From: Escherichia phage Ec_Makalu_002
Length of the DNA: 64,000 nt
Reading direction: 5' to 3' (one strand)
Sequence record: MN709127.1
The translations under genes and the position numbers were made by a program. The notes below the pieces were generated by a model. That model ran no database searches. It saw only the letters and a list, made by a program, of their open reading frames with translations, and was not told where the DNA came from. Numbering within the stretch: position 1 is the stretch's first letter; each line of letters opens with the position of its first letter. Shown here piece after piece: positions 2,849 to 46,169 of the stretch.

Positions 2849-3148
2849 TTAATCTTTTTTCAGTGCATCCATTACTCGCTCTGCAATCAGTTCTCTTAAG
2901 CACTGATAACCATGATATTTGATAGCAATGTCACGCAGATCATTAACCAGTTCCCGTACTTCATGGTCTTTCAAATCGTCTCTGTATTTCGATTTAACCG
3001 TGTCTTTAGGTGGATTGCGGATAACCTGAAAACCTTGTTCTGCAATCACTGCGGCTTCTCGCTGACGTTCATGCTGTACTGTATTTTTGATCAGGTCTGC
3101 TTCCATGAACTTTGCCATGCTCATCATCATGTTATTCTTTTTGCTCAT
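2849..3148 (-). CDS. hypothetical protein
   Basis: ORF track 2849..3184, but a promoter cassette lies inside its 5' end; internal ATG 3148 (MSKKNN...) has SD GAGGA. Confidence 0.45.
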   Translation of the reverse strand: MSKKNNMMMSMAKFMEADLIKNTVQHERQREAAVIAEQGFQVIRNPPKDTVKSKYRDDLKDHEVRELVNDLRDIAIKYHGYQCLRELIAERVMDALKKD

Positions 3149-3216: not shown

Positions 3217-5040
3217 TTAGCTACACATCCACTCTTTACGGCGGTCTGAATCTTCGCTATAGAGCAAATCGAATAGCTCTTTATAGTTTTCCGGTAACGT
3301 GATGATCTCCATGACAGGATCATTGATCACGCGATGATAATCTGATTCTGTAAGCGATGCTAACCCTTTGATATATCGAATGTTATAACCTTTGATATTA
3401 TCTCGGTCGTTCTCGAAATCTTCTAGGTCATAATACCATCGAACATCATCACCTTTCTTTGGTTCTGCAATGATAATAGGCGTTTTGATAAACCGGATTC
3501 GTCCATCTTCGAACAATTCAGGCCAACGTGCAAAGAAAGAGATCAGACTAGGCTTAATAGATCCGATCCCGTCAGTATCCGCGTCAGTCATAATCGCAAT
3601 ATTTTTGTATTGCATAACTTCCAATGCATCAACACCAAATTGCAAGCCAGTGATCGCCATGATGTTAAAAATTTCGGCATTCTTAACGATCTTTGCCTCC
3701 GGTTGTTCCCACGTTGTAAGAGTTTTACCTCGCAACGGGAAACCTCCATGTAAATCTTGATCACGTACAGAGATCAGATAGTTGATCGCGGAGTCACCCT
3801 CCGTCAGAAACAGGGTAGTTTCTGCGTCAGTTCCAATAAGGTTAGCTTTAACGTGTTTTGCTACCTTAGCCCGTTTTGCTGCCTTTGCTGCCTTAGTCGC
3901 TGCCGCTTTATCTGCTGCCTCTTTGCGTGCCAGGACTACAGCAATAATAGGCATGATAATGTTTTCTTTCTTAGCAATGACCTTAGCCAGCTTTTTAAAA
4001 TCAAGATCAATGTGACGCTTGATATCACCAGTCGGGTTAGTCAATCGCTCTTTTGTCTGTGAATCAAAGCGCAGGTTAGGCAATTCACGAACAATAAGAA
4101 TACAGGTCAAACCAGACTTAACCGCAGCTTTAGTAACATCAACCTTATATTCTTTCTTGATTCGTTTTACAATCTCTTCACAAAGATCATCTGTCACATA
4201 GTCTACGTGTGTTCCCCCGTTTTTGGTAAACAGACCATTAGCAAAGGATACAGATTTAAAACCTTCACCCTCAACCGCAGGAACTAGGGCAAGTGAAAAG
4301 TTTTTATCTTCAATGACAAACGGATCATCATTATAGAGTTTAGCATAGTCCTTGAACTTGCTAACAATACGTTTACCATTAAACTTAAACGTGATCTTAG
4401 GAAAGATTACGCTCAATGATTGCAGACGATCATGAACGATATCTAAAACAGAGTTGTCCATCATATAGCCTTCGAAGTGATCGAAGTCTGGACAAAATGT
4501 AACCTTTGTTCCTTTTAATTTTGATGGTTTTGATGACCATGTGATATTTTCAGCACCGTTGGTACATTGAACGGTCATTTCTGTTTCACCGTCACAGGTT
4601 ACACCAGTAAACCAATCGCTAAAGAAATTTGACAACGAAGATCCTACGCCGTTCATCCCTTGCGTTAATCGATTGGTATCATCAAAGTTAGATCCGGCTT
4701 TTGTTCTTGTCCATGCGGCGACTGGTTGCGGAATCTGCGTACCCTCTGGGGTAGTGACCATATGTTGAGGAATACCGCGACCATTGTCTGTTACCGTAAC
4801 AATATTGTTTTGGATATCGACGCTAATCACATTGGCAAATTCAAAATTAGTGCGGATCGCCTCATCTACAGAGTTGTCGATGATCTCATCAATGATTTTA
4901 ACCAGTCCAGGAACGTATGAAATTTTTGTCCACTTACCGAACAGGAAACGTTGATGTTCTTCGTAAGTAGTTGATCCTATGTACATTCCTGCACGCTTAA
5001 GGACATGTTCACGATCCGATAAAATGCGGAACTCACTCAT
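3217..5040 (-). CDS. 39: DNA topoisomerase II large subunit, gp39 with gp60 portion fused (GyrB-like)
   Basis: 607 aa; N-terminus MSEF..ILSD.EHV.KR.GMYIGS and DNGRGIP match T4 gp39 from memory; single continuous ORF. Confidence 0.85.
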   Translation of the reverse strand: MSEFRILSDREHVLKRAGMYIGSTTYEEHQRFLFGKWTKISYVPGLVKIIDEIIDNSVDEAIRTNFEFANVISVDIQNNIVTVTDNGRGIPQHMVTTPEGTQIPQPVAAWTRTKAGSNFDDTNRLTQGMNGVGSSLSNFFSDWFTGVTCDGETEMTVQCTNGAENITWSSKPSKLKGTKVTFCPDFDHFEGYMMDNSVLDIVHDRLQSLSVIFPKITFKFNGKRIVSKFKDYAKLYNDDPFVIEDKNFSLALVPAVEGEGFKSVSFANGLFTKNGGTHVDYVTDDLCEEIVKRIKKEYKVDVTKAAVKSGLTCILIVRELPNLRFDSQTKERLTNPTGDIKRHIDLDFKKLAKVIAKKENIIMPIIAVVLARKEAADKAAATKAAKAAKRAKVAKHVKANLIGTDAETTLFLTEGDSAINYLISVRDQDLHGGFPLRGKTLTTWEQPEAKIVKNAEIFNIMAITGLQFGVDALEVMQYKNIAIMTDADTDGIGSIKPSLISFFARWPELFEDGRIRFIKTPIIIAEPKKGDDVRWYYDLEDFENDRDNIKGYNIRYIKGLASLTESDYHRVINDPVMEIITLPENYKELFDLLYSEDSDRRKEWMCS

Positions 5041-5139
5041 TATTAAACCTCTTCATAACATAACCATAACTTACTGCAACCGCCACAAAGACGGCTGCAA
5101 CAATCATATTAAAAATTGAGTGATTGTCAAGTATATGAC

Positions 5140-5314: not shown

Positions 5315-5983
5315 TTATCCCCTTTGTTTCTTAACTGAATTTGGATCTGGATTTTCTGGCAAGTCTTCCAGACCCATAGCATAACGTTGTGCATAGATTA
5401 GCATAAGAATATCGCGAGCGCAATCATGAATTGCATCATGTGCGATGAATCCGTCTAATGTACCCATTGGTAGCGGACACTCACACATACCACGATGCAT
5501 TAATGTGCGCTCAATGGCGGTGCGAACATCTCGGATGTTCCAGAATCGCACAGGTTCAAGATTAAACGTCTCGCGGGTATTATGAGCACGTCGAATCATA
5601 TCAACTAGTAACGGAATATCAAACGCATTACCGCGTGACCACATTACGGATTTAACCGGATCTACTCCTACGGATTCACAGAATGCGTTAAAACGCGCTA
5701 AACCTTCTTTGGTTGATACTTCCGTCCCATTTGTGATTAATTGCTTTCTCATGCCTTCTGAGGCGGTATTCTTCCACCATTCAACCACACCATGATCAAA
5801 GATCCTTACACCTTTCTGGGAAGGAATATCAAATTTTACCAGAAAGGAATTATCAACCAGTTCTTTAAATGTCGGTGGATTGTGTGGGTCTTCTTTAAAT
5901 CCGATTGCCGCCATATTGATTACCGCCCCATCAGGCGGATAACCTAAACTTTCAAAGTCAATCATTAAATCCACTGGAAGCAT
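5315..5983 (-). CDS. dexA: exonuclease A (DEDD 3'-5' exonuclease)
   Basis: MLPVDLMIDFESLG and FWNIRDVRTAIE resemble T4 DexA; start at internal ATG 5983. Confidence 0.8.
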   Translation of the reverse strand: MLPVDLMIDFESLGYPPDGAVINMAAIGFKEDPHNPPTFKELVDNSFLVKFDIPSQKGVRIFDHGVVEWWKNTASEGMRKQLITNGTEVSTKEGLARFNAFCESVGVDPVKSVMWSRGNAFDIPLLVDMIRRAHNTRETFNLEPVRFWNIRDVRTAIERTLMHRGMCECPLPMGTLDGFIAHDAIHDCARDILMLIYAQRYAMGLEDLPENPDPNSVKKQRG

Positions 5984-5984
5984 T

Positions 5985-6227
5985 TTAAATATCCTCCGCG
6001 ATGTGCCGGAACAACTCAAGATCGTTTTTGTCCAGAATGAAACCGCTACAATCAATAATTCCTTTACCGTAATTATCGGTTAACAGTCGGTCCGTTGCCA
6101 TGTATGCGCATACCTTGTTGTTAAAATTCATTACATGTTGTGCATAGTCACAATGAATCTTTTGACGGTTCCACGCGACAATTGATTCAAGATGAATTAC
6201 CTTAGAGATATCGTTAATAACAACCAT
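5985..6227 (-). CDS. hypothetical protein
   Basis: 80-aa ORF; its start codon and RBS lie inside the 58-bp direct repeat. Confidence 0.5.
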   Translation of the reverse strand: MVVINDISKVIHLESIVAWNRQKIHCDYAQHVMNFNNKVCAYMATDRLLTDNYGKGIIDCSGFILDKNDLELFRHIAEDI

Positions 6228-6281
6228 ATCAAAAACCTCGCTTAGTGAAATATTCGATCATTTTATTGATACATGCAGCTT
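6224..6281. repeat. 58-bp direct repeat, copy 1 (57/58 identical to 6401..6458)
   Basis: ccatatcaaaaacctcgcttagtgaaatattcgatcattttattgatacat... read directly in both places. Confidence 0.9.
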
Positions 6282-6404
6282 GGTAGTCACGAGATTTTTT
6301 GACGAATTAAGAGCTACAGCCAAAAAGTCCTGTAATTGTTCGTTTGTCATTTTTGGCTTACGACGCGTATCTAAACTCTTCTTTCTTCTAACTTTATTAG
6401 CCAT
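6258..6404 (-). CDS. hypothetical small basic protein (48 aa)
   Basis: MANKVRRKKSLDTRRKPK...; ORF bounded by the two repeat copies; below the 60-aa ORF-track cutoff. Confidence 0.3.
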   Translation of the reverse strand: MANKVRRKKSLDTRRKPKMTNEQLQDFLAVALNSSKNLVTTKLHVSIK

Positions 6405-6458
6405 ATCAAAAACCTCGCTTAGTGAAATATTCGATCATTTTATTGATACATTCAGCTT
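6401..6458. repeat. 58-bp direct repeat, copy 2
   Basis: see copy 1. Confidence 0.9.
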
Positions 6459-6573
6459 CACTGTCGCCGGACACGTTCCATCCATAATAACCCCAACAAA
6501 AACACATGGTAACAGTTCCATTGTGACGGCGTACCGTCACTTCGTCAAATTCGGGGATATTTCGCATAATCAT
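6406..6573 (-). CDS. hypothetical small protein (55 aa)
   Basis: MIMRNIPEFDE...; SD GAGGAAA overlaps dda stop; below ORF-track cutoff. Confidence 0.35.
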   Translation of the reverse strand: MIMRNIPEFDEVTVRRHNGTVTMCFCWGYYGWNVSGDSEAECINKMIEYFTKRGF

Positions 6574-6583: not shown

Positions 6584-7975
6584 TCAAATATAGTCTACCC
6601 GATAACGTGCACGGGTAACACCCACATATAATAACTGCATTGCCAGTTCAAAGTCAACATTATCTGTACACATGCAAGGAGTATACAGGAACACGCGGTC
6701 TACGCTGATCCCTTGTGACTTATGAATAGTGCAAGCTGGTAATGCTTTTACATTCAGGAACATACGTTTCATCGTCCAGAAAGAATCCCAATCTGGTTTA
6801 AAGTTTGGATTCTCTTTCTTCATTTCGCGATATTGTCCGGCGACCGTATTCAGGTAGATAGAGAAAATGTTCTTCTGTCGTTGTTCTGTCAGAATATTGA
6901 TTTCTACTAAATCCGGTTTGTCGGTAGTGATTCCGACTGCATCTAAACCAACTTTCTGATTCAGGATCTCTTTGTCTTCGTCATTATCTACGCTTTCTAC
7001 TTTAAGAGTATAGCCTAAAACTGGTTGCGGATCTACCCCCGTGCAACGTAATGTAAATTCGCGCGGTATAACCTCTTTAACTCGGATCATCTCACCGTTG
7101 TTAAAAATCACATTAGGAATCTTCTTCCCGCGTTCATCTCGCAGATATTCGATCAACGGTTCCTGAGTAACCAGAATTTCATCTACAATGACCGGATCTT
7201 CTGTATTGTAAATGCGCTTACGCACAATTTCATTGAGTTTTTCGACACTCTTATTAGTGTAAGCCAGAATACGGTTTTCTAACAGGTCTTCCGGCGTTTT
7301 AACTGCTTCAAAATAACGAGTCATAAACTCCGGCAGAGTTGAGCTATGGAATACACCCTCGTTACCGCACTGCTTTTCGAATACCCATTTACCGTTACGG
7401 ACAGCGGTCGCCACATCAATTATTGGTGCATTAGATCGTTTAATCTCTGTAAGTTCTACATTATGGAACTTTTCATCGGTGAAGAAAGGAGAAATCGACG
7501 TTGCACCGCTCGGATCAACTGGTCGTAACTGGTGCGGATCACCCACGGCAATAATAACAATTCGCCCGTTGATACTCTTCATGAGAATATCAAATAACTT
7601 CTTATCGACCATACTCGCTTCATCAACAATGATGATCTGAACATCATCTAGCTTAGGAGTATCTTTTTGTTCAAATACTTGAGTATCTTCATAGTTGGTC
7701 GGATTAAGACGCAATAAAGCATGTAAAGTAAATGCTTGACGGCCTACCGCCTTACTCAAAACCTTTTTAGCCTGGTGGGTAGGCGTTGCCAAAACCACAC
7801 CAGTTACACCACGGCGGACCATTTCCTGAACAATGAATTTCATCATTGCGGTTTTACCAGTACCCGCCGCACCTCGGACAGTTGTATGCTTCTTTTGTTC
7901 AATGCGTTTCATCAGAACATCGAAAGCATGTTTTTGTCCGTCTGTCAACATATCGAAAGTTAATACTCTGCTCAT
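6584..7975 (-). CDS. dda: Dda DNA helicase (SF1)
   Basis: TFDMLTDGQKHAF..GAAGTGKT..ATPTHQAKK..IIVDEASM closely resembles T4 Dda. Confidence 0.85.
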   Translation of the reverse strand: MSRVLTFDMLTDGQKHAFDVLMKRIEQKKHTTVRGAAGTGKTAMMKFIVQEMVRRGVTGVVLATPTHQAKKVLSKAVGRQAFTLHALLRLNPTNYEDTQVFEQKDTPKLDDVQIIIVDEASMVDKKLFDILMKSINGRIVIIAVGDPHQLRPVDPSGATSISPFFTDEKFHNVELTEIKRSNAPIIDVATAVRNGKWVFEKQCGNEGVFHSSTLPEFMTRYFEAVKTPEDLLENRILAYTNKSVEKLNEIVRKRIYNTEDPVIVDEILVTQEPLIEYLRDERGKKIPNVIFNNGEMIRVKEVIPREFTLRCTGVDPQPVLGYTLKVESVDNDEDKEILNQKVGLDAVGITTDKPDLVEINILTEQRQKNIFSIYLNTVAGQYREMKKENPNFKPDWDSFWTMKRMFLNVKALPACTIHKSQGISVDRVFLYTPCMCTDNVDFELAMQLLYVGVTRARYRVDYI

Positions 7976-30431: not shown

Positions 30432-31233
30432 TCAAAAATTCAACTTCACGACGGTTAATGTCTTCTTGAAGGTCTTTAATCTTCTGTCGATCTTGCATGA
30501 TTTCGTCCATCTTGTCAAGTGCTGTGATGAAATCATCGAAACGTTCAAAGGTTTTACCTTCATTTGCTTCGCCAAATTTAACCATTGTTAGGCCATAACG
30601 ACTACTAAACAGACGCTTCAATTGCCCAACGATCTTAGAATCAGTGGTTATAACTTCCAATTCTTCTACTTCTTGAAAGAATTTTCTATCAGAATCAATA
30701 AACCAGCTAGTTCCTTTATGGTCGCTATCTTCGGTTGCACTCATTAGAGTATGGTCTTTACCATCAATTTCAATTACATCAATTTGCCCACATGGACGAA
30801 CATTTTTAACAGTAAAAGGTCTATAATTTATTGCTCGTGCAATAACATAATTAAGATTAGATACGTTTTCAGCATAATGACAGAAGTCGGTCATAGCATT
30901 CGCATCTTTCCAAGTATAAGTTTTACCAACCTCCCATTTCTGGGGAACTTCTTCAACTTCACGAAAGAATTTTCTATCGAATGGACTAAAGAGATATGTT
31001 GCAGTCCAAATGTCTTTTCCTGTAGCAGTTTTCGCCGTATGCTCAACCCCATCGAGTTCTATTACATCAATCCAACCATTATCCTCGATCTCGATGATGG
31101 TAAATGGCTTGTCACCAATAGCTGCACTAATATCGCTGTTAAGTGGAGAAAGAACACCTTCACCGTTAGTAATAAACTCAGTTTTAGCTTTTTCATCTTT
31201 CCAAGTGTAAGTTTTACCAATTTCCCATTTCAT
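30409..31233 (-). CDS. paralog-family protein with two tandem copies of the domain
   Basis: MKWEIGKTYTWKD...DRKFFREVEE then QKWEVGKTYTWKD...DRKFFQEVEE. Confidence 0.5.
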   Translation of the reverse strand: MKWEIGKTYTWKDEKAKTEFITNGEGVLSPLNSDISAAIGDKPFTIIEIEDNGWIDVIELDGVEHTAKTATGKDIWTATYLFSPFDRKFFREVEEVPQKWEVGKTYTWKDANAMTDFCHYAENVSNLNYVIARAINYRPFTVKNVRPCGQIDVIEIDGKDHTLMSATEDSDHKGTSWFIDSDRKFFQEVEELEVITTDSKIVGQLKRLFSSRYGLTMVKFGEANEGKTFERFDDFITALDKMDEIMQDRQKIKDLQEDINRREVEFLIGKERGW

Positions 31234-31245
31234 AATATATTCCCC

Positions 31246-31746
31246 TTAACCGATTTTATCAAGTTCGTTTAATGCTTTCTCTGCTTCCTGTATAGCTTGC
31301 ACTCTTTCCGGCATTTTGTCAAGAAAATCTTTCAACTCTTCAAAACTGGAGATATGACGCAATGCATTAGCACCGATAGCCGCATGTGATTTGCATTCAA
31401 AGCGAATTTTATAATTATCCATCGCCAATTTGAGAAGATCAATTAGATCATGCTCATGACCAGGCAATAAAACTTCTTTGAAGCACGCTCGGTCGCCATC
31501 GGAAAACCATATATTATCACCAACATCGATAGAACTAATATAATCCCCTTCGTGATTATAGATTGAACGTACATTACCCCAACGGTCTACCGTAGCAACA
31601 ATAAATGGTTTATCGAGATATGTAAACATACCATCAATATTAGGTCTTCGTTCGTAACGCCAACAATCACGCAAAATACTCTTTTCGTATTCTCCACCCA
31701 ACTTATAGGTCTTACCTTCTTCCCATTTCATATTATCATCTCTCAT
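31246..31746 (-). CDS. paralog-family protein
   Basis: MKWEEGKTYK...DKPFIVATVD...DRACFKEV; helical tail. Confidence 0.5.
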   Translation of the reverse strand: MRDDNMKWEEGKTYKLGGEYEKSILRDCWRYERRPNIDGMFTYLDKPFIVATVDRWGNVRSIYNHEGDYISSIDVGDNIWFSDGDRACFKEVLLPGHEHDLIDLLKLAMDNYKIRFECKSHAAIGANALRHISSFEELKDFLDKMPERVQAIQEAEKALNELDKIG

Positions 31747-32272
31747 TTTTGATACGTGATTCTAATTGGATCATACGGTCGCGCGTTTGCTTGTATTCGC
31801 GGATAGCACCGATCCGGCTAGGCATACCATCCAGTACGCTCTTAATACCTTCTAGGGTAGTGATTTTAGCAATGCTATTGTGCAATCCTGTCTTATCGAT
31901 CAACTGAATGTCGTAGGCTTCCATAAGCAGACCCAGACGTTCTAAAGTTAGGTCTTCTTCTTTTTCTTCCGATTCTGGAATCTTAGGTTCAATAGTAACT
32001 TCGGTAAAGAAACGACGCTCACCCGACCAAAACCACACACCAGAACAACCAATAGGGGATTCTTTTAACGTCATAGAGTCGAAATTACTACCAATAATAG
32101 TAATTTCTCTAACATCACCATCATCGTCAAGGTCTTCTACCCTAAACGGGCGACCAGCCAACAAGTCAACAATACATCTGTTAATAGACGACGAAAATTT
32201 AGTCAGTTCGGCTTTCGACGCTTCGCATTCAATCTTGTAAGTTTTACCAACTTCCCATTCCATAATAATCAC
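31736..32272 (-). CDS. paralog-family protein
   Basis: MEWEVGKTYK...GRPFRVEDLD...ERRFFTEV; helical tail. Confidence 0.5.
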   Translation of the reverse strand: MIIMEWEVGKTYKIECEASKAELTKFSSSINRCIVDLLAGRPFRVEDLDDDGDVREITIIGSNFDSMTLKESPIGCSGVWFWSGERRFFTEVTIEPKIPESEEKEEDLTLERLGLLMEAYDIQLIDKTGLHNSIAKITTLEGIKSVLDGMPSRIGAIREYKQTRDRMIQLESRIKNER

Positions 32273-36113: not shown

Positions 36114-36608
36114 TTATTTTACCAGTTCTGCTAATTCTTTTTCTTTAGCTTCCAGTTCAGCCTTAAGCTGTTTAATCTCTTGTCGCTTCTTATTAGCGGC
36201 TTCCTGCTTACTATTTCGGATAATCTGATCTAGATACAACTCCCAATCCTGAATATTTTTGATAATATAACCGTCAACATTAATTGGTTGGATATTTAGT
36301 ACAGCTTCCAGTTTAGTCGCAAAAACTTTAATTGCTGGGGTGAAGTATTCATATTCGTTATCTTCAAACCAATAACCTAGACTTGCATTATCAATACGAA
36401 GACGAAGTTCAAGATCAAGGTCTTTATCTTCGGTGTATAGGTCTTTTACACCCCCCATCGAACCAACAACAACTTTAAAACGAATTTTATCAACACCACC
36501 AAACACATCAGTAAGGATACCAGCAATTGAACTATTAGCGCAAGATTGGTCGCTGAATGCGTCAAGGTTTTCTTTAGTTACAGTATACCAAACATCTTGT
36601 ACCCACAT
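36114..36608 (-). CDS. hypothetical protein with coiled-coil tail
   Basis: 164 aa; C-terminal KKRQEIKQLKAELEAKEKELAELVK like the paralog-family tails. Confidence 0.45.
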   Translation of the reverse strand: MWVQDVWYTVTKENLDAFSDQSCANSSIAGILTDVFGGVDKIRFKVVVGSMGGVKDLYTEDKDLDLELRLRIDNASLGYWFEDNEYEYFTPAIKVFATKLEAVLNIQPINVDGYIIKNIQDWELYLDQIIRNSKQEAANKKRQEIKQLKAELEAKEKELAELVK

Positions 36609-36638
36609 AATATAATCCTCTCGTTGTTAAGTGGGAGT

Positions 36639-36666
36639 ATTATAGCATACTCCCTTCGCATGTCAA
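36639..36666 (-). promoter_or_regulatory. sigma70-like promoter (TTGACA-N16-TATAAT), hairpin GGGAGTAT..ATACTCCC
   Basis: minus-strand reading. Confidence 0.5.
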
Positions 36667-37841
36667 GCACGAACTTTTTTCTTTACTGCTTTCACCTTCT
36701 GGCGAATTGCTCGAATCGCTTCGATCTCTTTTTCAGTCTCTTTAACAATTTCTTTGCGATTCTGAATATCTGTATCGAGATTATCATCAAGTTTAGGCAG
36801 CACGTCAATCAAGAACTTTTTAAAGTCTTTCAGGTTTCGGATAACCGCACCTTCACCCATTACCGCCACCCCTACACCATCCGGCAGATCACCAAACAGC
36901 TTAACCAGTTCAGATAGATGATCATGATCCTCTAGTGCTTCTTCCGGTTCAGATGGCAGTTCAACAAAGTTATAACGTTCATCATTGCTGATCAGATGAT
37001 ACCAGCAAAGCCCGAAAGATTTAGGAGTATATTCTACACCATCAACTTCAACCGCGTCAACACTTCCGAAAGGATCTACTTTAGTTACCTTAAATCCATG
37101 TTCCAGCTTTTGAACAATTTCAATAACATGGCTGGATACGGTTTCAGTGTTAAACCAATGAGGCAAATTATGCTGATTTGGCTTGTAGCGTTCGCCTACT
37201 TTAAATCGCTGACCTTCCGCTTGCATAGAATGAAATTGATGGTTGGTGATTTCCGCGAAGTATTCAAATTCGCCACCGTCAAACACACAAGCCCATTGAT
37301 CACAAAAACGATCTGCCTTAACGGTTTCACCTTTCGCGGTGATCATGGTAGCTGATCCGTGCAATTCTTCTTCAACCAAAAAGCCATATTCGACAAAATC
37401 AGCAAGTTTCATGGCTTCTTTGTGTTCTGGGTCATGCTCTCCCCAGAATCGCTTAAATTCTTGCAAACCTTCTGGGGTAAACGAATAACATTTACCTTTT
37501 TCAAAGTAAGTCGGCATTGCATCCTCTTTCTTGTTCATCGCTTCGTATGCCTCTTTTGAGATACGTTTAAAGTATTTGCGCTCATTGTGCATAATCATAG
37601 TAGACCAATAATAAACGATATCCTCAGCGGAATAAACTACATCTCCAGCTTCAATAGTAATAACATGACCGTGGTCATCTTTTTCTAATACTTTAAAGCC
37701 CTTTTCTACGATTTCAGCAACTCGAATATGACCACGGCGCGAAGCATCGGTCAGAATAATTGAATAGCGAGAAAAGTCTAGAAACTCATCTTTACCGCCT
37801 TCACGGAATGCATAGTAATGACCTTCAAAGAATTTAGCCAT
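36663..37841 (-). CDS. paralog-family protein with three tandem domain copies
   Basis: 392 aa; GHYYAF..GFKVLEKDDHGHV..NERKYFKRI; KGKCYSF..; KVGERYK..GFKVTKVDPFG..ERYNFVEL. Confidence 0.5.
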   Translation of the reverse strand: MAKFFEGHYYAFREGGKDEFLDFSRYSIILTDASRRGHIRVAEIVEKGFKVLEKDDHGHVITIEAGDVVYSAEDIVYYWSTMIMHNERKYFKRISKEAYEAMNKKEDAMPTYFEKGKCYSFTPEGLQEFKRFWGEHDPEHKEAMKLADFVEYGFLVEEELHGSATMITAKGETVKADRFCDQWACVFDGGEFEYFAEITNHQFHSMQAEGQRFKVGERYKPNQHNLPHWFNTETVSSHVIEIVQKLEHGFKVTKVDPFGSVDAVEVDGVEYTPKSFGLCWYHLISNDERYNFVELPSEPEEALEDHDHLSELVKLFGDLPDGVGVAVMGEGAVIRNLKDFKKFLIDVLPKLDDNLDTDIQNRKEIVKETEKEIEAIRAIRQKVKAVKKKVRA

Positions 37842-37872
37842 AATATAATCCTCTCGTTGTTTAGATGGGAGT

Positions 37873-37901
37873 ATCTTACTACTCCCGTTTCATCATGTCA
37901 A
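37873..37901 (-). promoter_or_regulatory. sigma70-like promoter (TTGACA-N17-TAAGAT), hairpin GGGAGTA..TACTCCC
   Basis: minus-strand reading. Confidence 0.45.
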
Positions 37902-38464
37902 GCGTTAAATGACTTTTTAATCTCTTTCAGTTCTTCCACTTTCTCGGCGCTGAATTTAGCGTAGGTATCATGTCGAATAATTTCACTTTCAAGAAAGGTT
38001 TCCAGTCGAGATCTATTTTCAATAAGGAACTCTTTCAGGTCTTCCGCGTTCTTGACAAAGATTTTATTGTCGGTAATGTCATCTTCAATCGCAAAGGAGA
38101 TAGAGCGAACTTTACCAAACAAGTTAATCAGATCTTCCAGAGATTCTTCTTTCTTAACTGGCTTCATTTCTTCAAACTGCTTTTTAGTGATGCGTTTAAA
38201 GTATTTGCGCTCGTTTGCAGCAATCAGAACAGATGCACCTTCATACCCATGAGTTTCTACCAGATACACACGCCCCATCGCATCAACAGTGAGAACTTTA
38301 AAGCCGTTACAAAGCACGTCATACAAGAACTTATTATGTTGCGGACATCGTTTGATAAATTCTGCGGCTGTTTCTGCACTACGGAAAGTGTAATAACGAC
38401 CTCGTTCAAAAACAGCATCATTTGAAGACTTAGCCGGATACAATTTATACGTTTTCTGTACCAT
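37898..38464 (-). CDS. paralog-family protein
   Basis: GFKVLTVDAMGRVYLVE..NERKYFKRI; start moved to ATG 38464 with SD GAGGATTATATT. Confidence 0.5.
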   Translation of the reverse strand: MVQKTYKLYPAKSSNDAVFERGRYYTFRSAETAAEFIKRCPQHNKFLYDVLCNGFKVLTVDAMGRVYLVETHGYEGASVLIAANERKYFKRITKKQFEEMKPVKKEESLEDLINLFGKVRSISFAIEDDITDNKIFVKNAEDLKEFLIENRSRLETFLESEIIRHDTYAKFSAEKVEELKEIKKSFNA

Positions 38465-38490
38465 AATATAATCCTCTATCATTTCACTAA

Positions 38491-38751
38491 TTAAACAGCA
38501 CGGAACAGAATGCGCTCACACGGAAGCAGCATAAATTCCCAACGCGGGTCAAAGTCTTTAGCGGTGTATGTTTTCCCATCAACCGCTATTTCACTTACAT
38601 AACCAACAGGTGACACTTTAAGAACAGTAAACCCATTCTTGATGACTTCGTAGGTATCTTTCACCCCTTCGTATTCATCATCTAAGAAGTCTTTATGTGC
38701 TTGCTCAGATTTAAAAACATAGGCCACACCGGATTTAAACATCTTACGCAT
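38491..38751 (-). CDS. paralog-family protein (single domain)
   Basis: GVAYVFKS..GFTVLKVSPVGYV..VDGKTY..W; start ATG 38751 with SD AAGGAGAA. Confidence 0.45.
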   Translation of the reverse strand: MRKMFKSGVAYVFKSEQAHKDFLDDEYEGVKDTYEVIKNGFTVLKVSPVGYVSEIAVDGKTYTAKDFDPRWEFMLLPCERILFRAV

Positions 38752-38782
38752 TGTTGATTCTCCTTCTTGATTAGATGGGAGT

Positions 38783-38811
38783 ATTTTACTACTCCCATTT
38801 CTTATTGTCAA
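38783..38811 (-). promoter_or_regulatory. sigma70-like promoter (TTGACA-N17-TAAAAT)
   Basis: minus-strand reading. Confidence 0.5.
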
Positions 38812-38814
38812 CTA

Positions 38815-39288
38815 CTATCTTAATCTTTGTATGAATTGTTTCTTATACTTCTTCGTGATTTCTTCTCGTGTATCAGCGTCGCAGTAATCGAAACCTTCTG
38901 CGTCCATAATAGCAACCATCTCCGCGCGTGTCAAGCGTGAAAATCGTTTTACTTTATCAACAGCATATTGAGGATGTAAATGATTGTTGGTGTAGTCTCC
39001 TTTGATGTAATTAACATAGTTTGTAGCCCAAACTACGAAATCAGCACCTAAAGCACCAACACCAAACCGCTTAAAGTCTCCGGTCAACGATCCTTCTAGG
39101 CGGTTGCAACACGAATGAAGCAATCCCCTTACACGTCCTTGACCTTTACCATCTAGATCGTGGTCGTGGTCAAGATGGTTTTTGCTCATATCCTCAAAAA
39201 GTGGCAATTGACAAAGGGGGCAAATGCCCCCTTGTTTTTCGAATAGTTCTTGTTTGTACTCTTTAGCACTCTTAGCAGTCAGTAACAT
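38815..39288 (-). CDS. 49: endonuclease VII (Holliday junction resolvase gp49)
   Basis: MLLT.K..KE.KQ...GICPLCQ...NHLDHDH.L.G...G.VRGLL..CN closely matches T4 endo VII; 157 aa from ATG 39288. Confidence 0.85.
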   Translation of the reverse strand: MLLTAKSAKEYKQELFEKQGGICPLCQLPLFEDMSKNHLDHDHDLDGKGQGRVRGLLHSCCNRLEGSLTGDFKRFGVGALGADFVVWATNYVNYIKGDYTNNHLHPQYAVDKVKRFSRLTRAEMVAIMDAEGFDYCDADTREEITKKYKKQFIQRLR

Positions 39289-39312
39289 AAATTCACCCTC
39301 CAAAGAAGGTAT

Positions 39313-39594
39313 TTAACCATTAATCTTGTTTTTGACTACAAAGGATCGGAACTCATCAAAGCCACCGATATAATCACCATTATAGAAAATCTGCGGCATG
39401 GTGGCAATAACTTCTACCCCTGCGCGATCCTGAATATCGGCAATGATAGAATCAATCTTTACAGGGCGACCGTTTTCGTCCACACCATCATTAACAGGAA
39501 TATAGATGTAAGGGATCTTGCGCGATTCACAAAGGCGCTTTGCGTTCTGGCAATACTTACAGTTGTAACCTTCAAAACCAAAAATTTCTACCAT
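39313..39594 (-). CDS. nrdC: thioredoxin/glutaredoxin NrdC-like
   Basis: CKYC active site, NAKRL, MPQIF..GGFDEF resemble T4 NrdC; ATG 39594. Confidence 0.7.
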   Translation of the reverse strand: MVEIFGFEGYNCKYCQNAKRLCESRKIPYIYIPVNDGVDENGRPVKIDSIIADIQDRAGVEVIATMPQIFYNGDYIGGFDEFRSFVVKNKING

Positions 39595-39602
39595 GTTATA
39601 CC

Positions 39603-40415
39603 TCAATCTACGTTAGTTACATAAACTTCTTGTGTATCAGAAGACTTGCCACCTGAACGATCTAGACAATAGGTCTTATTCAACAGGACGCAGTTTAAAT
39701 CATTCCGCTTGATAAAGTCAATAAGATGGTTATTGACCTTTCCCTTATGATGCGTGACATTACTGATACCAAACTGAACACCACGCGCCATAATAGATTC
39801 TACCCACCGATAGAATTTAATCTCTTCCTCATCACCCCAGAACTTATTATATTCAGCAGAAGTGATAAGGTACGGCGGGTCCAAATAAACAAAATCACCG
39901 GGCAAGATCTCGATCTCGTCATACCGTCCAGAAGTAAACTTGATTCGACCGTCTTTGGTTTCTTCCTTAAAATTCAAGACACGCTCTACCGCATTTTCGT
40001 TAAAAGTCCGGCGACCAAAGTTAGCATTAAATTCGCCCTTCCGGTTATGGCGGTTAATGTTGCTAAAACTATGCTGAATCAACACAAACAGCGATAGCGG
40101 ATCTGGATTCTCATTATACTTCTTACGGAATGCCATGTAAGCATCTTTATCATCACGAGACAAACCATTCTCGGAAATAATCCGCTTGATCGTAGAAACC
40201 GGGTCAGGACACGCATCAATGGCCTTGTAAGCGTCAATTAAACGATGGTCGTAGTCATTAGCCAGTACATCACCTTCAACATACAGAGACACGCTCAAGC
40301 CACCGCAAAAGGCATCAACAAAGCGGTTGTAGTGCTTAGGGAAATACTTACTAACACCAGGCAATAACTTTTCCTTATTGCCAGTATAGGGAATTAAACC
40401 TAATGCTTTCTTCAT
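39603..40415 (-). CDS. dam: DNA adenine methyltransferase Dam
   Basis: YTGNK, FVD.FCGGLSVSL and DPPY motifs resemble T4 Dam. Confidence 0.8.
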   Translation of the reverse strand: MKKALGLIPYTGNKEKLLPGVSKYFPKHYNRFVDAFCGGLSVSLYVEGDVLANDYDHRLIDAYKAIDACPDPVSTIKRIISENGLSRDDKDAYMAFRKKYNENPDPLSLFVLIQHSFSNINRHNRKGEFNANFGRRTFNENAVERVLNFKEETKDGRIKFTSGRYDEIEILPGDFVYLDPPYLITSAEYNKFWGDEEEIKFYRWVESIMARGVQFGISNVTHHKGKVNNHLIDFIKRNDLNCVLLNKTYCLDRSGGKSSDTQEVYVTNVD

Positions 40416-40846
40416 TATCCCTTCCTTAAATAAGTTCTTTCAGTTTCTACCAGTTCGAAAAATTCATCCCAATCACACGGAAAGTTACAGTTTCCAAAAT
40501 GGTCTTCGTTGTAGAGTTCTTCACCGGATGGCAACTTAATATCTGTTACAGTATACCAACCGCAGCAATCGCAATCACCCTCAACAACAGAAACCTTCGT
40601 AGGAATTTGCATCATTGCCAGATACAAAGGTACGTCAGACTGTTCAAAGATCATGTAACCTTCATGGTCAAACGAGACAAAATTGTCATCACCCAAAAAA
40701 GGAATGTAATGGTCATAATCGATGACAGGTTGACCGTGCAATTCCCATTCTACAATTTTAACAATACCACTAAACTTTATACCCATCATATCAACCATAA
40801 AATGGGTATCATCAATGTAAATCTTACTAGGTGTTGGATAAACCAT
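40415..40846 (-). CDS. hypothetical protein
   Basis: 143-aa ORF. Confidence 0.45.
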   Translation of the reverse strand: MVYPTPSKIYIDDTHFMVDMMGIKFSGIVKIVEWELHGQPVIDYDHYIPFLGDDNFVSFDHEGYMIFEQSDVPLYLAMMQIPTKVSVVEGDCDCCGWYTVTDIKLPSGEELYNEDHFGNCNFPCDWDEFFELVETERTYLRKG

Positions 40847-40856
40847 TATATAATCC

Positions 40857-41153
40857 TCATATCTCAGAGAATAGAATCTCTGTTAGCTTCACTGACTGCT
40901 CTCTGAATGTTAGCGTATACTCGAAAGGAAAGTCAACACCTAATTTCAGAAGAGAATAACCTACCGCCTCTTTATGCTTATCGGTTAGGGCGATCCTAAC
41001 CAATTCCCGTTGAATCTCTTTAGGCGGTGAATGGATAGTAACACGGGTATCATGTAATGTCCAGTCACCATTTCGAATTAAGATTAACGGTTTATCATCA
41101 TTGAAGATCACCGACCCCTTTCCGGTCGGTGAATGTTTTATATTAATCATCAA
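40857..41153 (-). CDS. hypothetical protein
   Basis: 98-aa ORF. Confidence 0.45.
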   Translation of the reverse strand: MMINIKHSPTGKGSVIFNDDKPLILIRNGDWTLHDTRVTIHSPPKEIQRELVRIALTDKHKEAVGYSLLKLGVDFPFEYTLTFREQSVKLTEILFSEI

Positions 41154-41364
41154 ATTCTAAGAAATATTCTGGAACGATATAACCGTTAAAGTCATTGCAC
41201 TTATAAAAATGTGGTGCATTTAATGCTTGATGAGCATTAGTAAAGAGTTCACCCTCTAGAAACAGAATGTAATTAATCGGTCTAATACCGACAGAATCAG
41301 GGTCTAAACCTTTTTCTTTCAGTTCAGCCAGCGTTAAAACTCGTCCAGATCTTAACTTAGCCAT
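41143..41364 (-). CDS. hypothetical protein
   Basis: 73-aa ORF. Confidence 0.4.
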   Translation of the reverse strand: MAKLRSGRVLTLAELKEKGLDPDSVGIRPINYILFLEGELFTNAHQALNAPHFYKCNDFNGYIVPEYFLEFDD

Positions 41365-41650
41365 GATTTACCCCCAATTCATCAAGATTATGTCGCAGCA
41401 TTTCAGAGTATTTTTCTACTTCCTTAATCTTAGTGTGGATCTCCACGATCTCATCCACACTATCAGAAATTTTAATGGCATTCGCGAGCGTGCTTTTACC
41501 CGCTTTCACAGTCTCTTTCATTTCAACCAACATGTCCGCGTGTTTCAATAGTAATTCTTCACGTCGAACATAGGCGACGGTCAAAGCCTCATCAGCAAGT
41601 TCTAAAGCATTTTCAGCGACACCAACAACCATTTTACGAGTAGACAACAT
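41357..41650 (-). CDS. hypothetical protein
   Basis: 97-aa ORF. Confidence 0.45.
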   Translation of the reverse strand: MLSTRKMVVGVAENALELADEALTVAYVRREELLLKHADMLVEMKETVKAGKSTLANAIKISDSVDEIVEIHTKIKEVEKYSEMLRHNLDELGVNHG

Positions 41651-41664
41651 AAATTCACCTCACA

Positions 41665-41973
41665 TTATTTCACGTTAACGCCGTCATCAATCCAGCCGAC
41701 GCTATTTGGTTTAACAGTTTTACCATAGGATGCATACTTAATCAAGCATGGTTTAACATCATTATCAAATCTTCCTAAGCGCACTCCCAAATCAGGAATA
41801 TCCATGTATGCGGCTTTATATCCCCATGTACAATATTCAGCATCAATCTCAACCGGACGGCCTTTAAAAGCATATACTACACCGTGACGGTCAACGATAA
41901 CATAGCGATAGCCAGCCGGAAGATACACAGTTTCGCCATAAACTTTAACTGGAGTAGCAGAAGAGATAAACAT
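41665..41973 (-). CDS. hypothetical protein
   Basis: 102-aa ORF; SD GAGGATTATATT. Confidence 0.45.
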   Translation of the reverse strand: MFISSATPVKVYGETVYLPAGYRYVIVDRHGVVYAFKGRPVEIDAEYCTWGYKAAYMDIPDLGVRLGRFDNDVKPCLIKYASYGKTVKPNSVGWIDDGVNVK

Positions 41974-42007
41974 AATATAATCCTCACATCGTTCATTTGA
42001 TGCGGCT

Positions 42008-42036
42008 ATTATAGGATAACCGCATTTTCATGTCAA
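42008..42036 (-). promoter_or_regulatory. sigma70 consensus promoter (TTGACA-N17-TATAAT), hairpin GCGG..CCGC
   Basis: minus-strand reading. Confidence 0.55.
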
Positions 42037-42044
42037 CTGTTTTT

Positions 42045-42419
42045 TTAAAAATCTTCTTCCGGTTTATATCGACAGTCGTCTTCTTTTTTTGGAGTAAATC
42101 CGGTATGCTTGCGCGGCTTCGCTTCCGGTTTACCCGCAATTGATAGACCAAACCATTTAAGAAGTTTGTATGAGTAAGCGATGACCACAACCACCCACGT
42201 TATAGGCCAGATGATTGCAGCAATACAAAATGCTCCTGTATCGACCTCTTTGGTGTCCTTGTCGAATCTGGCATACAAGCAGAATATAAGATACGAGATC
42301 ATTGCACCAGTAGGCCAAATATAAAGCACATTAACAATATCTTGTGTTGTCACATTATCCTCCTTACATGTCTTGCAGTGCGTAAAAGCATTTATCTTCA
42401 TAGTCATAGAAAATGTCAA
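42045..42419 (-). CDS. hypothetical membrane protein
   Basis: 124-aa ORF; overlaps upstream ORF by 56 nt so true start may be internal (42302). Confidence 0.4.
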   Translation of the reverse strand: MTFSMTMKINAFTHCKTCKEDNVTTQDIVNVLYIWPTGAMISYLIFCLYARFDKDTKEVDTGAFCIAAIIWPITWVVVVIAYSYKLLKWFGLSIAGKPEAKPRKHTGFTPKKEDDCRYKPEEDF

Positions 42420-42642
42420 AGTATGCTTTTTCTACATACTCGCCATTGATCCAAGCGGCAGTAACAATCAGGGTAGTCCAGTTAGATCCGCTCTCCACCG
42501 TAAAGGTTTTAATACCCAGCTTAACAGCCAAGTCACGAGCAAACTGATCGCAACCACGGCAGGAAGTGATATTGGAAGTTTTGATTTTGATGCCACCGCG
42601 AGTTTTAGAAATTTCTACTTTAGCGAAAGACAGGTTGCTCAT
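42364..42642 (-). CDS. hypothetical protein
   Basis: 92-aa ORF. Confidence 0.45.
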   Translation of the reverse strand: MSNLSFAKVEISKTRGGIKIKTSNITSCRGCDQFARDLAVKLGIKTFTVESGSNWTTLIVTAAWINGEYVEKAYFDIFYDYEDKCFYALQDM

Positions 42643-42684
42643 TTTGATTCTCCTTAAGAAAGTGTGTTTCGTTTTGATGTGTGT

Positions 42685-42713
42685 AGTATAGGGGATCGGC
42701 GATCCCCTGTCAA
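42685..42713 (-). promoter_or_regulatory. sigma70-like promoter (TTGACA-N17-TATACT), spacer palindrome GGGGATC..GATCCCC
   Basis: minus-strand reading. Confidence 0.5.
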
Positions 42714-42729
42714 CAACTTTTTTATGATT

Positions 42730-43050
42730 TTAGTGAATTAACTCTACACCAAAATGAGGCACAGAGAACGCATTACGAAACACATATTCACCATGTTTAG
42801 GAATCGCCCCTAACCGCTCTATTTCGCTCGCCATCACGATAAACTGTTTATCTGGTGCATATGCCTTGTGTGCTTCAACAACGCACGGAAAACGCGTTTT
42901 AGAGAGTTCTGGATAGTTTTCTGAATCCAGAAGGACAATGAATACCCTGTTACATTGATTGTAGAATCCTGTTTTTGATTTCATCAAGTTTTCTTCTATG
43001 TTCAAGTCGTGCAATCTTCTTTTCATGATTTCGTTGGTTCTTGTCTTCAC
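42730..43050 (-). CDS. hypothetical protein (possible 3' part of a frameshifted gene)
   Basis: 106-aa ORF overlapping 42950..43288 by 101 nt in another frame. Confidence 0.35.
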   Translation of the reverse strand: MKTRTNEIMKRRLHDLNIEENLMKSKTGFYNQCNRVFIVLLDSENYPELSKTRFPCVVEAHKAYAPDKQFIVMASEIERLGAIPKHGEYVFRNAFSVPHFGVELIH

Positions 43051-43288
43051 AGTTTACCCACTCAACAAGATCTTTACCTAACTCAAAAGCCCATTCTCGG
43101 TCTTGCTTTACGTTTTGTAGGTATGGACTTTCCGACACTCGACGAAGTGATGTTGTCGTAACAAGAATGATCCCAGGAATGGTCGGATGCTCCTTACCAT
43201 ATACAATCGGACGGGAATCCCTTTCGACACCTTGTAAGAAGGTGTATCCTGAATCATTCAGCAACAAATACATTTTCGGTTCGTTCAT
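42950..43288 (-). CDS. hypothetical protein (possible 5' part of a frameshifted gene)
   Basis: 112-aa ORF with low-complexity charged tail in the overlap. Confidence 0.4.
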   Translation of the reverse strand: MNEPKMYLLLNDSGYTFLQGVERDSRPIVYGKEHPTIPGIILVTTTSLRRVSESPYLQNVKQDREWAFELGKDLVEWVNCEDKNQRNHEKKIARLEHRRKLDEIKNRILQSM

Positions 43289-43554
43289 TACAGCTTCCTC
43301 AACCAGTTATTAAAGCGAGCAAACAATGATGCTTTTCGTGCTTCTTCTTCGGCTTTGCACGCACGCAAACCACTGAAACACCATTCATAATCATCACTGA
43401 AACATGATTCAACAGGAACACCCGCATTTCGTAGTTCTCTGGTCGTTATCATAAATCCTTGACATAATGGGCGACCTTCAACAATGATAGGAAGTTTAAC
43501 TTTTTTCATGAAAGTATACCCAGCACGGTCAATAATTTCAATTTTAATTTTCAT
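43288..43554 (-). CDS. hypothetical protein, small paralog family
   Basis: AGYTFMKKVKLPIIVEG..TTRELRNAGV resembles 45907..46128 product. Confidence 0.45.
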   Translation of the reverse strand: MKIKIEIIDRAGYTFMKKVKLPIIVEGRPLCQGFMITTRELRNAGVPVESCFSDDYEWCFSGLRACKAEEEARKASLFARFNNWLRKL

Positions 43555-43799
43555 TTTACGTTATCTCCATAGATCTTTCCATCAATATCAATTTCACCAG
43601 CGCGAACATCTAGGATAAGATGCGGTAGGTGTATGTAGTTTTCCCACCCTACGCGCTTCATTTCTTCTACGGTAACGTAAGCCCACCCGTTCGCTGTAAT
43701 AAAGTCTACTTCAACCTTGAGAGGAAAGCAAGACTTTTCTATGTCTTCGAATCCGACAATATGTTTTGTTGTTGAATATGGAATATATCCGGTGATCAT
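43551..43799 (-). CDS. hypothetical protein
   Basis: 82-aa ORF. Confidence 0.45.
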   Translation of the reverse strand: MITGYIPYSTTKHIVGFEDIEKSCFPLKVEVDFITANGWAYVTVEEMKRVGWENYIHLPHLILDVRAGEIDIDGKIYGDNVK

Positions 43800-44230: not shown

Positions 44231-44240
44231 CTTGTATTCC

Positions 44241-44459
44241 TCACTCTTCTGTAATTACTTCATATTCAATTTTCCACACATCAATCGCCCAGCTTAAAAG
44301 CTCATACGATTTACAGAAAGATGACCAAATATACTGTTTTCCGTGCATCGTTGTTATGTGTGTATGCTCGCCAACTTCAACGAAAGACATATTTGACTTT
44401 GTGATAACTATAGGAATACGACCGAAAGGAGGCGGTATTACTGATTCGTTGGTCTTCAT
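44241..44459 (-). CDS. hypothetical protein, paralog of 43796..44230 C-terminus
   Basis: start ATG 44459 with the same 17-nt RBS segment (attcctcactcttctgt) as the neighbour. Confidence 0.45.
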   Translation of the reverse strand: MKTNESVIPPPFGRIPIVITKSNMSFVEVGEHTHITTMHGKQYIWSSFCKSYELLSWAIDVWKIEYEVITEE

Positions 44460-44469
44460 TCTATATTCC

Positions 44470-46128: not shown

Positions 46129-46169
46129 TTTTGATTCTCCTAGAAAGTGTATCTCGTTTCGATGGGTGT

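Follow-up and report, generated by a model that had tools for sequence, protein, structure and literature searches.

A 58-Nucleotide Direct Repeat Between dda and dexA of a Krischvirus as a Probable Scar of Plasmid Gene Capture

Gene Layout and Anatomy of the Repeat

A 64,000-nucleotide (nt) stretch of Escherichia phage Ec_Makalu_002 DNA (MN709127.1), hereafter referred to as the window, was analyzed with respect to a 58-nt direct repeat, denoted R, which brackets a small open reading frame (ORF) between the helicase gene dda and the exonuclease gene dexA. Megablast assigned the window to Krischvirus, the RB49/Phi1 group of T4-type coliphages, and Ec_Makalu_003 was 99% identical to it across the repeat region. 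All genes of the dda–dexA small-gene group are carried on the minus strand, with dda (6584–7975) as the upstream boundary and dexA (5315–5983) as the downstream one. Three small genes, named ORF010, ORF009.1, and ORF009 in Phi1, lie between them. ORF010 (6406–6573; 55 amino acids (aa); phrog_16162) is a resident gene, the 3′ tail of which is the duplicated sequence. The following 48-aa ORF (6258–6404) is a frameshifted version of the Phi1 ORFan009.1, which encodes 58 aa in intact relatives, and it keeps residues 1–37 that include a basic N-terminus and a predicted helix. ORF009 (5985–6227; 80 aa; phrog_15021) is the resident downstream gene, which takes its Shine–Dalgarno (SD) sequence and start codon from the second copy of R. 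The proteins of ORF010 and ORF009.1 were found only in Krischvirus when an index of 5.8 billion proteins was searched.

The two copies of R are 58 nt each, match at 57 of the 58 positions, and are placed 177 nt apart from start to start. Copy A (6401–6458, minus strand) consists of the final 17 codons of ORF010 with its stop, the SD sequence GAGG at 6416–6413, a 1-nt spacer, and the ATGG of the inserted gene. Copy B (6224–6281, minus strand) holds 7 out-of-frame codons and the stop of the 48-aa ORF, 30 untranslated nt, GAGG at 6239–6236, and the ATGG of ORF009. The existence of such a repeat, spanning in each copy the 3′ end of one ORF, an SD sequence, and the ATG of the next, had been noticed in an earlier inspection of the window (the original prediction), and it was confirmed. 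Between the copies lies the unique segment U (6282–6400, minus strand; 119 nt), which corresponds to the putatively captured body of a plasmid 50-aa gene described below. Written in gene orientation, R is AAGCTG(A/C)ATGTATCAATAAAATGATCGAATATTTCACTAAGCGAGGTTTTTGATATGG, that is, a coding end, GAGG, eight bases, and TGA-T-ATG-G, so that it is composed of coding sequence plus a 1-nt intergenic gap. The string TGTATCAATAAA was unchanged across every R copy examined, and the 15-mer TGTATCAATAAAATG was invariant except in the B copies of 011D4 and L154, where the A-run differs by a 1-nt indel. A 51-nt core of R matched only two places in the 64-kb window, against 0 expected from 100 shuffles, and among direct repeats of 28 nt or longer that are spaced within 3 kb, R was the only one of the whole window with more than 94% identity. 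The arrangement is not an assembly artefact, since 17 independent GenBank records and several metagenome contigs share the R-U-R layout and 58 bp is shorter than a sequencing read.

No sigma-70-like promoter overlapping 6224–6281 or 6401–6458 was detected on either strand, and no terminator-like hairpin was found to overlap either copy. The minimum free energy of R (−6.6 kcal/mol) gave z values of +0.05 to +0.42 relative to shuffles, and those obtained with flanks were −0.17 and +0.55. R had no match in Rfam, and no inverted repeats bounding U were found. A transposable element with a target-site duplication was also considered as the inserted entity and rejected, because there are no inverted repeats, U is only the 5′ part of a 50-aa gene, and the duplication is 58 bp as compared with 2–14 bp. 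Scanning of IMG/VR with the 15-mer was unspecific (more than 120 chance loci), while a 33-nt degenerate pattern gave 3 loci, all of which belong to Krischvirus.

Distribution Among Related Phages

Relatives were aligned at the dda–dexA junction, which was the check proposed with the original prediction, and both presence and absence of the intervening ORF were found, with one R remaining where the ORF is absent. The full locus of 801–803 bp, in which the 177–179-bp unit is present, was identified in 17 of the 58 phage records matching the region. A short locus was seen in at least 34 of the 58 as two alignment pieces spanning 624 bp (627 bp in Cognac), and 624 bp is the size expected without the unit. 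The short-locus genomes (10 fetched genomes and 2 IMG/VR contigs) have exactly one intact R, an intact 55-aa ORF010, and no U. Blastn of U against phages detected the same locus only, together with short chance matches. Carrier and empty genomes were interspersed on the neighbor-joining trees of both flanks, and these two trees disagreed with each other, indicating that the state has been reshuffled by recombination, repeated loss, or both. Nucleotide diversity (π) among carriers was 0.039 for U and 0.030–0.066 for the flanks; this similarity indicates that the insert is not recent.

The presence or absence of ORFan009.1 is already known, as it was described as Phi1-specific relative to RB49 and located outside the hyperplastic regions (Arbiol et al. 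2010, PMC2839356). The accessible part of that paper makes no mention of a repeat flanking ORFan009.1, and no earlier description of the coding-junction repeat, of its explanation, or of a plasmid origin was found in the accessible literature.

A Plasmid Gene Adjoining a YafO-Family Toxin

A profile search of 1.84 billion representatives detected P0013, a 49-aa protein encoded by N4-like contigs, and P0012, an allele from Krischvirus that is divergent. When metagenomes were scanned for a conserved 25-mer taken from U, two small contigs, L156 and L157, were obtained, which match 3.1-kb E. coli plasmids. Both contigs and the plasmids NZ_AP022094.1 and NZ_CP145632.1 carry a 50-aa gene, MANEVRRTKRLDTRRKPKMTNEQLLAFLAAGINASKNRDYQADITLEAHH, whose product is WP_024046379.1. 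This gene is located 36 nt upstream of that for a 172-aa YafO_toxin protein (WP_024046380.1; PF13957 score of 35 bits, cutoff 25), and on the 3.1-kb E. coli plasmids an HTH_36/DnaD_N gene is oriented divergently to it. The 50-aa gene and the YafO_toxin gene formed a unit with a spacing of 36–39 nt in every intact context seen, and small Rop-type plasmids of both E. coli and Enterobacter carry this two-gene unit, as do three plasmid contigs from metagenomes. The gene downstream of the 50-aa gene is cut short in a Serratia plasmid, beside a Tn3/TEM-1 insertion. U is homologous to the gene lying directly upstream of YafO_toxin in this conserved pair, and the order of antitoxin followed by toxin is that of the YafO family (PMC11980606).

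The plasmid alleles showed a synonymous diversity (pS) of about 0.5–0.65 and a ratio of nonsynonymous to synonymous diversity (pN/pS) of 0.15–0.23, and hence appear old and constrained. All phage alleles were closest to the E. coli plasmid allele, that is, they fall inside the plasmid diversity sampled. A transfer from plasmid to phage is indicated because plasmids carry the complete gene alongside a conserved partner, its plasmid alleles are far more diverse and are under purifying selection, and the phage alleles are nearest to the E. coli plasmid allele. Differences from this allele numbered 12–13 nonsynonymous against 1 synonymous, an excess that is by estimate not significant alone.

Junctions and Proposed Capture Mechanism

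Identity to the plasmid gene was evaluated over the interval from ATG to AAGCTG. The window matched NZ_AP022094.1 (101–253) at 115/129 positions (89%), Phi1 at 116/130, L154 at 120/136, and L160 at 124/127 (98%); the last two are contigs described below. At the left (upstream) junction, the plasmid reads AAGGTTTCGATATGG and the phage reads GAGGTTTTTGATATGG, which share an exact 7-nt microhomology, GATATGG. At the right (downstream) junction, the plasmid reads CCAAGCTGATATCAC and the phage reads GTGAAGCTGAATGTATC, sharing the exact 7-nt AAGCTGA. Plasmid–phage similarity ends at both boundaries of R, and the plasmid copy has no R sequence beyond these 7-nt patches. Donor homology thus stops at the two junctions with a short shared sequence at each, which is the pattern expected of foreign DNA captured by way of microhomology. 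The left patch of the empty site is situated 58 nt downstream of the right one.

On these grounds, R is probably the duplication scar left when a Krischvirus captured plasmid DNA through microhomology. The ancestral site would be of the RB49 type, dda–ORF010–ORF009–dexA, with the stop of ORF010, the SD sequence, and the start of ORF009 packed in ...AAGCTGAATGTATCAATAAAATGATCGAATATTTCACTAAGCGAGGTTTTTGATATGG. Upon infection of a cell containing a small ColE1-type plasmid, recombination or replication may have departed from the phage template at GATATGG, a sequence that forms the SD-start region and also precedes the plasmid 50-aa gene. About 120 nt of the plasmid gene would then be copied, followed by a return to the phage template at AAGCTG(A), common to the plasmid gene and the start of the ORF010 tail. 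Since the exit is located downstream of the re-entry, with the return point 58 nt upstream of the exit point, 58 nt are necessarily copied twice, which would create R-U-R. The new gene would consist of the first 42 plasmid codons (Met1 to Ala42, ...DYQA) fused in frame to the last 14 codons of ORF010. Copy A would supply a ready-made ribosome-binding site (RBS) to ORF009.1, and copy B would keep the own RBS of ORF009. Exit and return at two patches is the simplest account of R-U-R, while the route, either template switching or recombination with two phage genome copies, is inferred. The original prediction had supposed a cassette insertion by short-homology recombination, and it is supported by the donor-type plasmid gene, by the homology that stops at both R boundaries with 7-nt microhomologies, and by the existence of the predicted polymorphism. 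The structural and origin account as a whole is considered to be well on the probable side.

Template switching of the fork stalling and template switching (FoSTeS) or microhomology-mediated break-induced replication (MMBIR) type, or illegitimate recombination, generates insertions with flanking duplication, and T4 rII deletions occur between short direct repeats. The present locus resembles such events in the 7-nt microhomologies at both junctions, in the re-entry upstream of the exit that duplicates an interval, and in repeats that allow later precise deletion. It differs in that the route is deduced from sequence, and a three-partner recombination on concatemeric phage DNA gives the same product.

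Probable Homogenization of the Two Copies

Once formed, the two copies would serve as substrates for phage homologous recombination, permitting precise loss of the insert, its re-gain by crosses with carriers, and gene conversion. The near-perfect identity of the copies held for the window (57/58) and was not found to be general. Only 1 mismatch between copies A and B was counted in the window and the Makalu genomes, whereas 5–9 were present in 10 of the other 11 carriers, with 011D4 left unscored because of an extra base in its copy B. Most of the other carriers have ATG[ACT]CAGAACAT in copy B, a form seen in type-1 genomes and in L160, while the window lineage has ATGATCGAATAT there, as in its copy A. 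All three allele classes of U occur with a copy B that reads NCAGAACAT, but in the window and, independently, in L154, copy B equals the copy A of the same genome. Furthermore, a site that is polymorphic among A copies is matched by the own copy B, with GAATAT in the window and GAACAT in L154. The state ATG[ACT]CAGAACAT is probably the original one, because L160 has it together with a U that is close to identical with the plasmid sequence. The window copy B hence likely became near-identical to copy A through gene conversion or some equivalent exchange inside R, and this most likely explains the high identity that had been noticed. The opposite polarity, with the window copy B as the ancestral one, was considered, and L160, having the most plasmid-like U together with a Phi1-type copy B, tipped the choice towards conversion. 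Such homogenization is direct evidence that the R copies interact.

Another trace of exchange was detected immediately downstream of copy B, at the 5′ end of ORF009. Positions 6205–6223 of the window read ttgttattaaCgatatCTct, whereas Makalu_003 reads ...TgatatGGct; the window matches the empty-site phages SSG23, Brandy, and UPWr_E1 there instead. This mismatch to Makalu_003 and match to SSG23 and Brandy indicates a recombination breakpoint beside the repeat.

Reading Frame and Constraint of ORF009.1

The 58-aa form of ORF009.1 is present in 8 of the 14 carriers, where copy B is read in the same frame as copy A in ORF010 (...CINKM.EH.TKRGF). The statement that the peptides encoded by the two copies differ in frame accordingly applies to the window, the Makalu genomes, and a few other frameshifted genomes, while it fails for those eight. 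The frame depends on an A6 homopolymer at 6295–6300 (minus strand), whose length on the coding strand decides whether ORF009.1 enters copy B in the ORF010 frame. Its length is A7 in intact relatives, A8 in ECD7, A5 in L160, and A6 in the plasmid gene. The window and two Makalu genomes have A6 in place of A7, by which the ORF stops after 48 aa at a TGA inside copy B. The A8 of ECD7 also frameshifts ORF009.1, and the same outcome was seen in pEJ01 by the loss of one T from a T-run and in 011D4 by one extra A later in the gene. The 48-aa form was present on at least 10 contigs from several sources, which indicates that it is inherited and is not a one-off sequencing error. Taken together, the C-terminus of ORF009.1 has evidently been reset repeatedly by slippage. 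A metagenomic allele (P0005, contig L146) is frameshifted and regains the frame by a second, compensating shift after 30 nt.

The pN/pS value of the R-encoded tail was 0.15 in ORF010 and 0.84 in ORF009.1. The ORF010 tail is thus under purifying selection, while the value of the ORF009.1 tail relative to it indicates that copy B is not kept for its peptide. The original prediction had placed the conservation at the nucleotide level, and since the ORF009.1 tail shows no constraint as a protein, shared ancestry at the nucleotide level is the correct explanation. Among phage alleles, pN/pS was 0.37 for the unique part of ORF009.1 and 0.56 for the whole gene.

Further Alleles and Parallel Captures

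At the same junctions, the insert has two other alleles. The metagenomic Krischvirus contig L160 (ENA ERZ27286941; 170.7 kb) carries one at 3001–3144, and L154 (ENA ERZ28636463) carries the other at 4001–4153, where it is only 79% identical to the Phi1-type U, includes a 9-nt internal duplication, and ends with CINK*. These alleles would result either from capture on more than one occasion or from plasmids renewing the phage copy.

Related sequences were also found outside Krischvirus. The N4-like contig L150 (JGI 3300007106; 75 kb), with Gp1 and Gp2 as neighbors, holds a 49-aa gene at 4001–4150, whose first ~97 nt are about 93% identical to a different plasmid allele, P0019, and which is unrelated thereafter. 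L150 and the P0019 plasmid come from the same JGI sample series. The 5′ part of a gene of the same plasmid family was here captured independently by an N4-like phage. A related module was further detected at residues 16–48 of the Gamaleyavirus variant of N4 gp6 (phrog_7648), which cross-matched phrog_37371 at 6.8e-6. This variant is a mosaic (L148, 311–529; L149, 1453–1632), in which the N- and C-termini match N4 gp6 and the middle resembles the plasmid/ORF009.1 module, while N4 gp6 itself (L155, 701–859) has an unrelated middle. The 10-nt string CATGTATCAA, shared by R and the 3′ end of the gp6-like gene of Gamaleyavirus, was examined as a junction microhomology and dropped, since the plasmid donor is far more identical. 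The region common to all phage versions is approximately residues 1–32, which comprise the basic N-terminus and the start of the helix predicted, with low confidence, at residues 21–36.

Possible Function of ORF009.1

An orphan antitoxin, or a mimic of one, is the most economical reading of ORF009.1, because the gene adjoins a YafO-family toxin gene on plasmids, lytic phages have captured it repeatedly, and its retained part is under moderate constraint. No cognate toxin was found beside the phage gene, as ORF009 and dexA follow and there is no YafO-like ORF, so that the phage gene would be an orphan antitoxin. We tentatively suggest that ORF009.1 may act as a mimic that neutralizes a YafO-type toxin in plasmid-bearing hosts. 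A wider proposal, offered with slightly more reserve, is that the unrelated Krischvirus and N4-like Schitoviridae independently took the N-terminal ~32–45 antitoxin residues of a YafO module carried on small ColE1-type plasmids of enterobacteria and may use them as an orphan antitoxin that disarms this module.

E. coli K-12 YafN–YafO (PF13957; PMC11980606) can be compared with the donor operon, which has a small gene followed by a YafO_toxin-domain protein in the order typical of the family. The two differ in that the plasmid toxin is a 172-aa protein with an N-terminal extension of ~70 aa, and that the upstream 50-aa protein matched no family of the Pfam, NCBIfam, or PADLOC libraries, which would include a YafN model. 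The 50-aa protein is furthermore predicted to be mostly disordered with one helix, and the phage has only the upstream gene, truncated and fused, with no toxin. T4 Dmd, a phage inhibitor of the RnlA and LsoA toxins that is not homologous to RnlB (PMC5308261, PMC8266594), offers another comparison. ORF009.1 is likewise a small T4-type phage protein, encoded among the small genes of the dda–dexA region, and could replace a labile host antitoxin. It differs from Dmd in being a direct copy of most of the putative antitoxin gene, with 87–98% nt identity depending on the allele (89% in the window).

Several points weigh against this account of capture and function. The antitoxin role of the 50-aa protein is suggested by gene position only, as it has no match in Pfam, NCBIfam, or PADLOC, and the plasmid YafO-family toxin has no PADLOC match either. 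The AlphaFold model of the 50-aa protein is mostly disordered, with a predicted local distance difference test (pLDDT) score of 66 and one helix at residues 21–36, and was judged too weak for a fold search. The toxin–antitoxin (TA) plasmid is rare, being present in 2 of 5,426 complete E. coli genomes. The window allele is only 89% identical to the plasmid gene and thus does not pin down the exact donor, and L160, with its 98% allele, could stem from a separate capture or have been converted by a plasmid at a later time. Gains and losses appear uncountable, with carrier and empty states interspersed on both flank trees, and the ancestral status assigned to the empty site rests on the donor argument, not on an outgroup. 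The gene is absent from most genomes, and frameshifts are frequent, occurring in four different ways in 6 of the 14 carriers; together with the whole-gene pN/pS of 0.56, this also fits a decaying passenger.

Indeed, the capture could have occurred as described and the gene be a neutral, decaying passenger with no anti-toxin function, for which the repeat is only a substrate for loss. The four independent frameshifts among the 14 carriers, the pN/pS values of the tail and the whole gene, the absence of the gene from two thirds of genomes, and the rarity of the donor plasmid are all in favor of this reading, and relaxed constraint would agree with the excess of nonsynonymous differences from the plasmid allele. 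However, of the four frameshifts, three lie beyond residue 37 and spare the region kept in every phage version, and the pN/pS of the unique part is 0.37. The independent N4-like capture of the 5′ part, with the related module in the Gamaleyavirus gp6 variant, and the persistence of the gene across lineages as divergent as the flanks also speak against it. A passenger without function is regarded as rather unlikely, though it deserves to be taken seriously.

If the orphan-antitoxin proposal is true, the plasmid YafO-family TA system would be an abortive-infection defense, and the 58-bp duplication would make the counter-defense gene a detachable cassette, which is gained, refreshed from plasmids (as the 98% allele of L160), and lost depending on the hosts met. 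The parallel N4-like event suggests selection for the captured piece. ORF009.1 is a testable candidate for an antitoxin-mimic counter-defense gene, through which a possible anti-phage role of the plasmid YafO-family module could be addressed. If the function is not confirmed, the locus is still a clean, if ordinary, case of mosaic gain and loss. The origins of small ORFans in T4-type phages are rarely traceable, and here the donor family, the junctions, the microhomologies, and the cause of the duplication can be read from the sequence.

Alternative Origins of the Repeat

A quite different history would regard the carrier state as ancestral, having arisen by a partial tandem duplication of ORF010 with subsequent divergence of the second N-terminus. 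RB49-type genomes would then be deletions, and plasmids and N4-like phages would have taken the gene from Krischvirus. This is attractive in that the 177-nt unit is close to the 169-nt unit of ORF010, the insert is old as judged from a U diversity equal to that of the flanks, a T4-type phage is expected to lose a segment precisely between 58-bp repeats, and both flank trees intermix carrier and empty genomes. However, no residual similarity is left between the unique part of ORF010 and that of ORF009.1 (p = 0.15 for nucleotides and 0.79 for amino acids), and identity falls from about 90% to random at the R boundary. U is 89–98% identical to a complete plasmid gene, which has its own C-terminus and a conserved toxin partner and has no R beyond the 7-nt patches. 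Moreover, plasmid members of the family (pS about 0.6) are much more diverse than those of phages, and the nesting seen is that of phage alleles within plasmid diversity, although few sequences are involved. The tandem-duplication history is hence judged improbable.

It is less probable still that the repeat is kept for a function of its own, such as translational coupling or a regulatory element before each small gene, and is not a scar. Each copy indeed provides GAGG-N8-ATG and a TGA-N-ATG junction to the next gene, and TGTATCAATAAA and, in all but two B copies, TGTATCAATAAAATG are invariant as described above. Nevertheless, an RBS and a start codon require no more than the final ~16 nt, the R sequence is missing from all other small-gene junctions of the window, R has neither a predicted RNA structure nor an Rfam match, and copy B diverges freely in most genomes.

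The shuffling elements of Phi1/RB49-type phages are promoter plus stem-loop cassettes (PMC2839356; Comeau et al. 2014, PMC4122927), and exchange of such promoter-early stem-loop (PeSL) cassettes, with the repeats being regulatory cassettes for shuffling and mini-circles, was considered as well. It shares the logic of flanking repeats, precise excision, and a possible U+R circle, PeSL-like elements do occur elsewhere in the window, and ORFan009.1 is itself listed as Phi1-specific relative to RB49. Yet this is the least credible of the explanations, since no promoter or terminator-like hairpin overlaps either copy, R folds with the same energy as shuffled sequences (z from −0.2 to +0.6), it has no intergenic space and is a coding 3′ end plus a stop/start junction with only two copies in 64 kb, and ORF009.1 lies outside the hyperplastic regions in the published comparison, the accessible text of which counts 4 of 14 differential ORFans without an adjacent PeSL and does not name them (PMC2839356).

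The likeness of the capture locus to PeSL shuffling is still instructive. Both concern the same phage group and gene (ORFan009.1), with a short repeat flanking a dispensable ORFan and relatives that have one copy and no ORFan, and excision, re-insertion, and U+R mini-circles are conceivable for the window locus. The difference is that R is made up of the 3′ coding end of a resident gene and the stop/SD/start junction and is not a promoter or stem-loop; it is present at one locus only, being created by the insertion, and does not belong to a pre-existing dispersed family. Plasmid capture would account for one non-PeSL difference between Phi1 and RB49.

Other Features of the Window

No Rfam families and no tRNAs were found within the window. 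A PeSL-like element is located at 5071–5130 on the minus strand, consisting of TTGACA-16-TATGAT (11/12 match) with a 14-bp stem-loop directly after it. It sits between the 39.2-like zinc-ribbon and topoisomerase genes and overlaps a 36-aa ORF. The large subunit of the topoisomerase is encoded at 3217–5040 by a single 607-aa ORF; that of T4 is split between genes 39 and 60. Dispersed repeats were also observed, including a 61-nt family, D1, at 46149, 47392, 57197, 58169, and 60165, and the further families D3 at 36606–44693 and D4 at 37824 and 38734. These three families are 62–89% identical and have TTGACA-like and TATAAT-like boxes on the minus strand, and are probably PeSL cassettes of the hyperplastic region. 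Lastly, the overlapping repeat families D2, D6, and D9 at 30661–32267, with spacings of 288–291 and also of 498 and 532 nt, suggest a tandem array of small paralogous genes.

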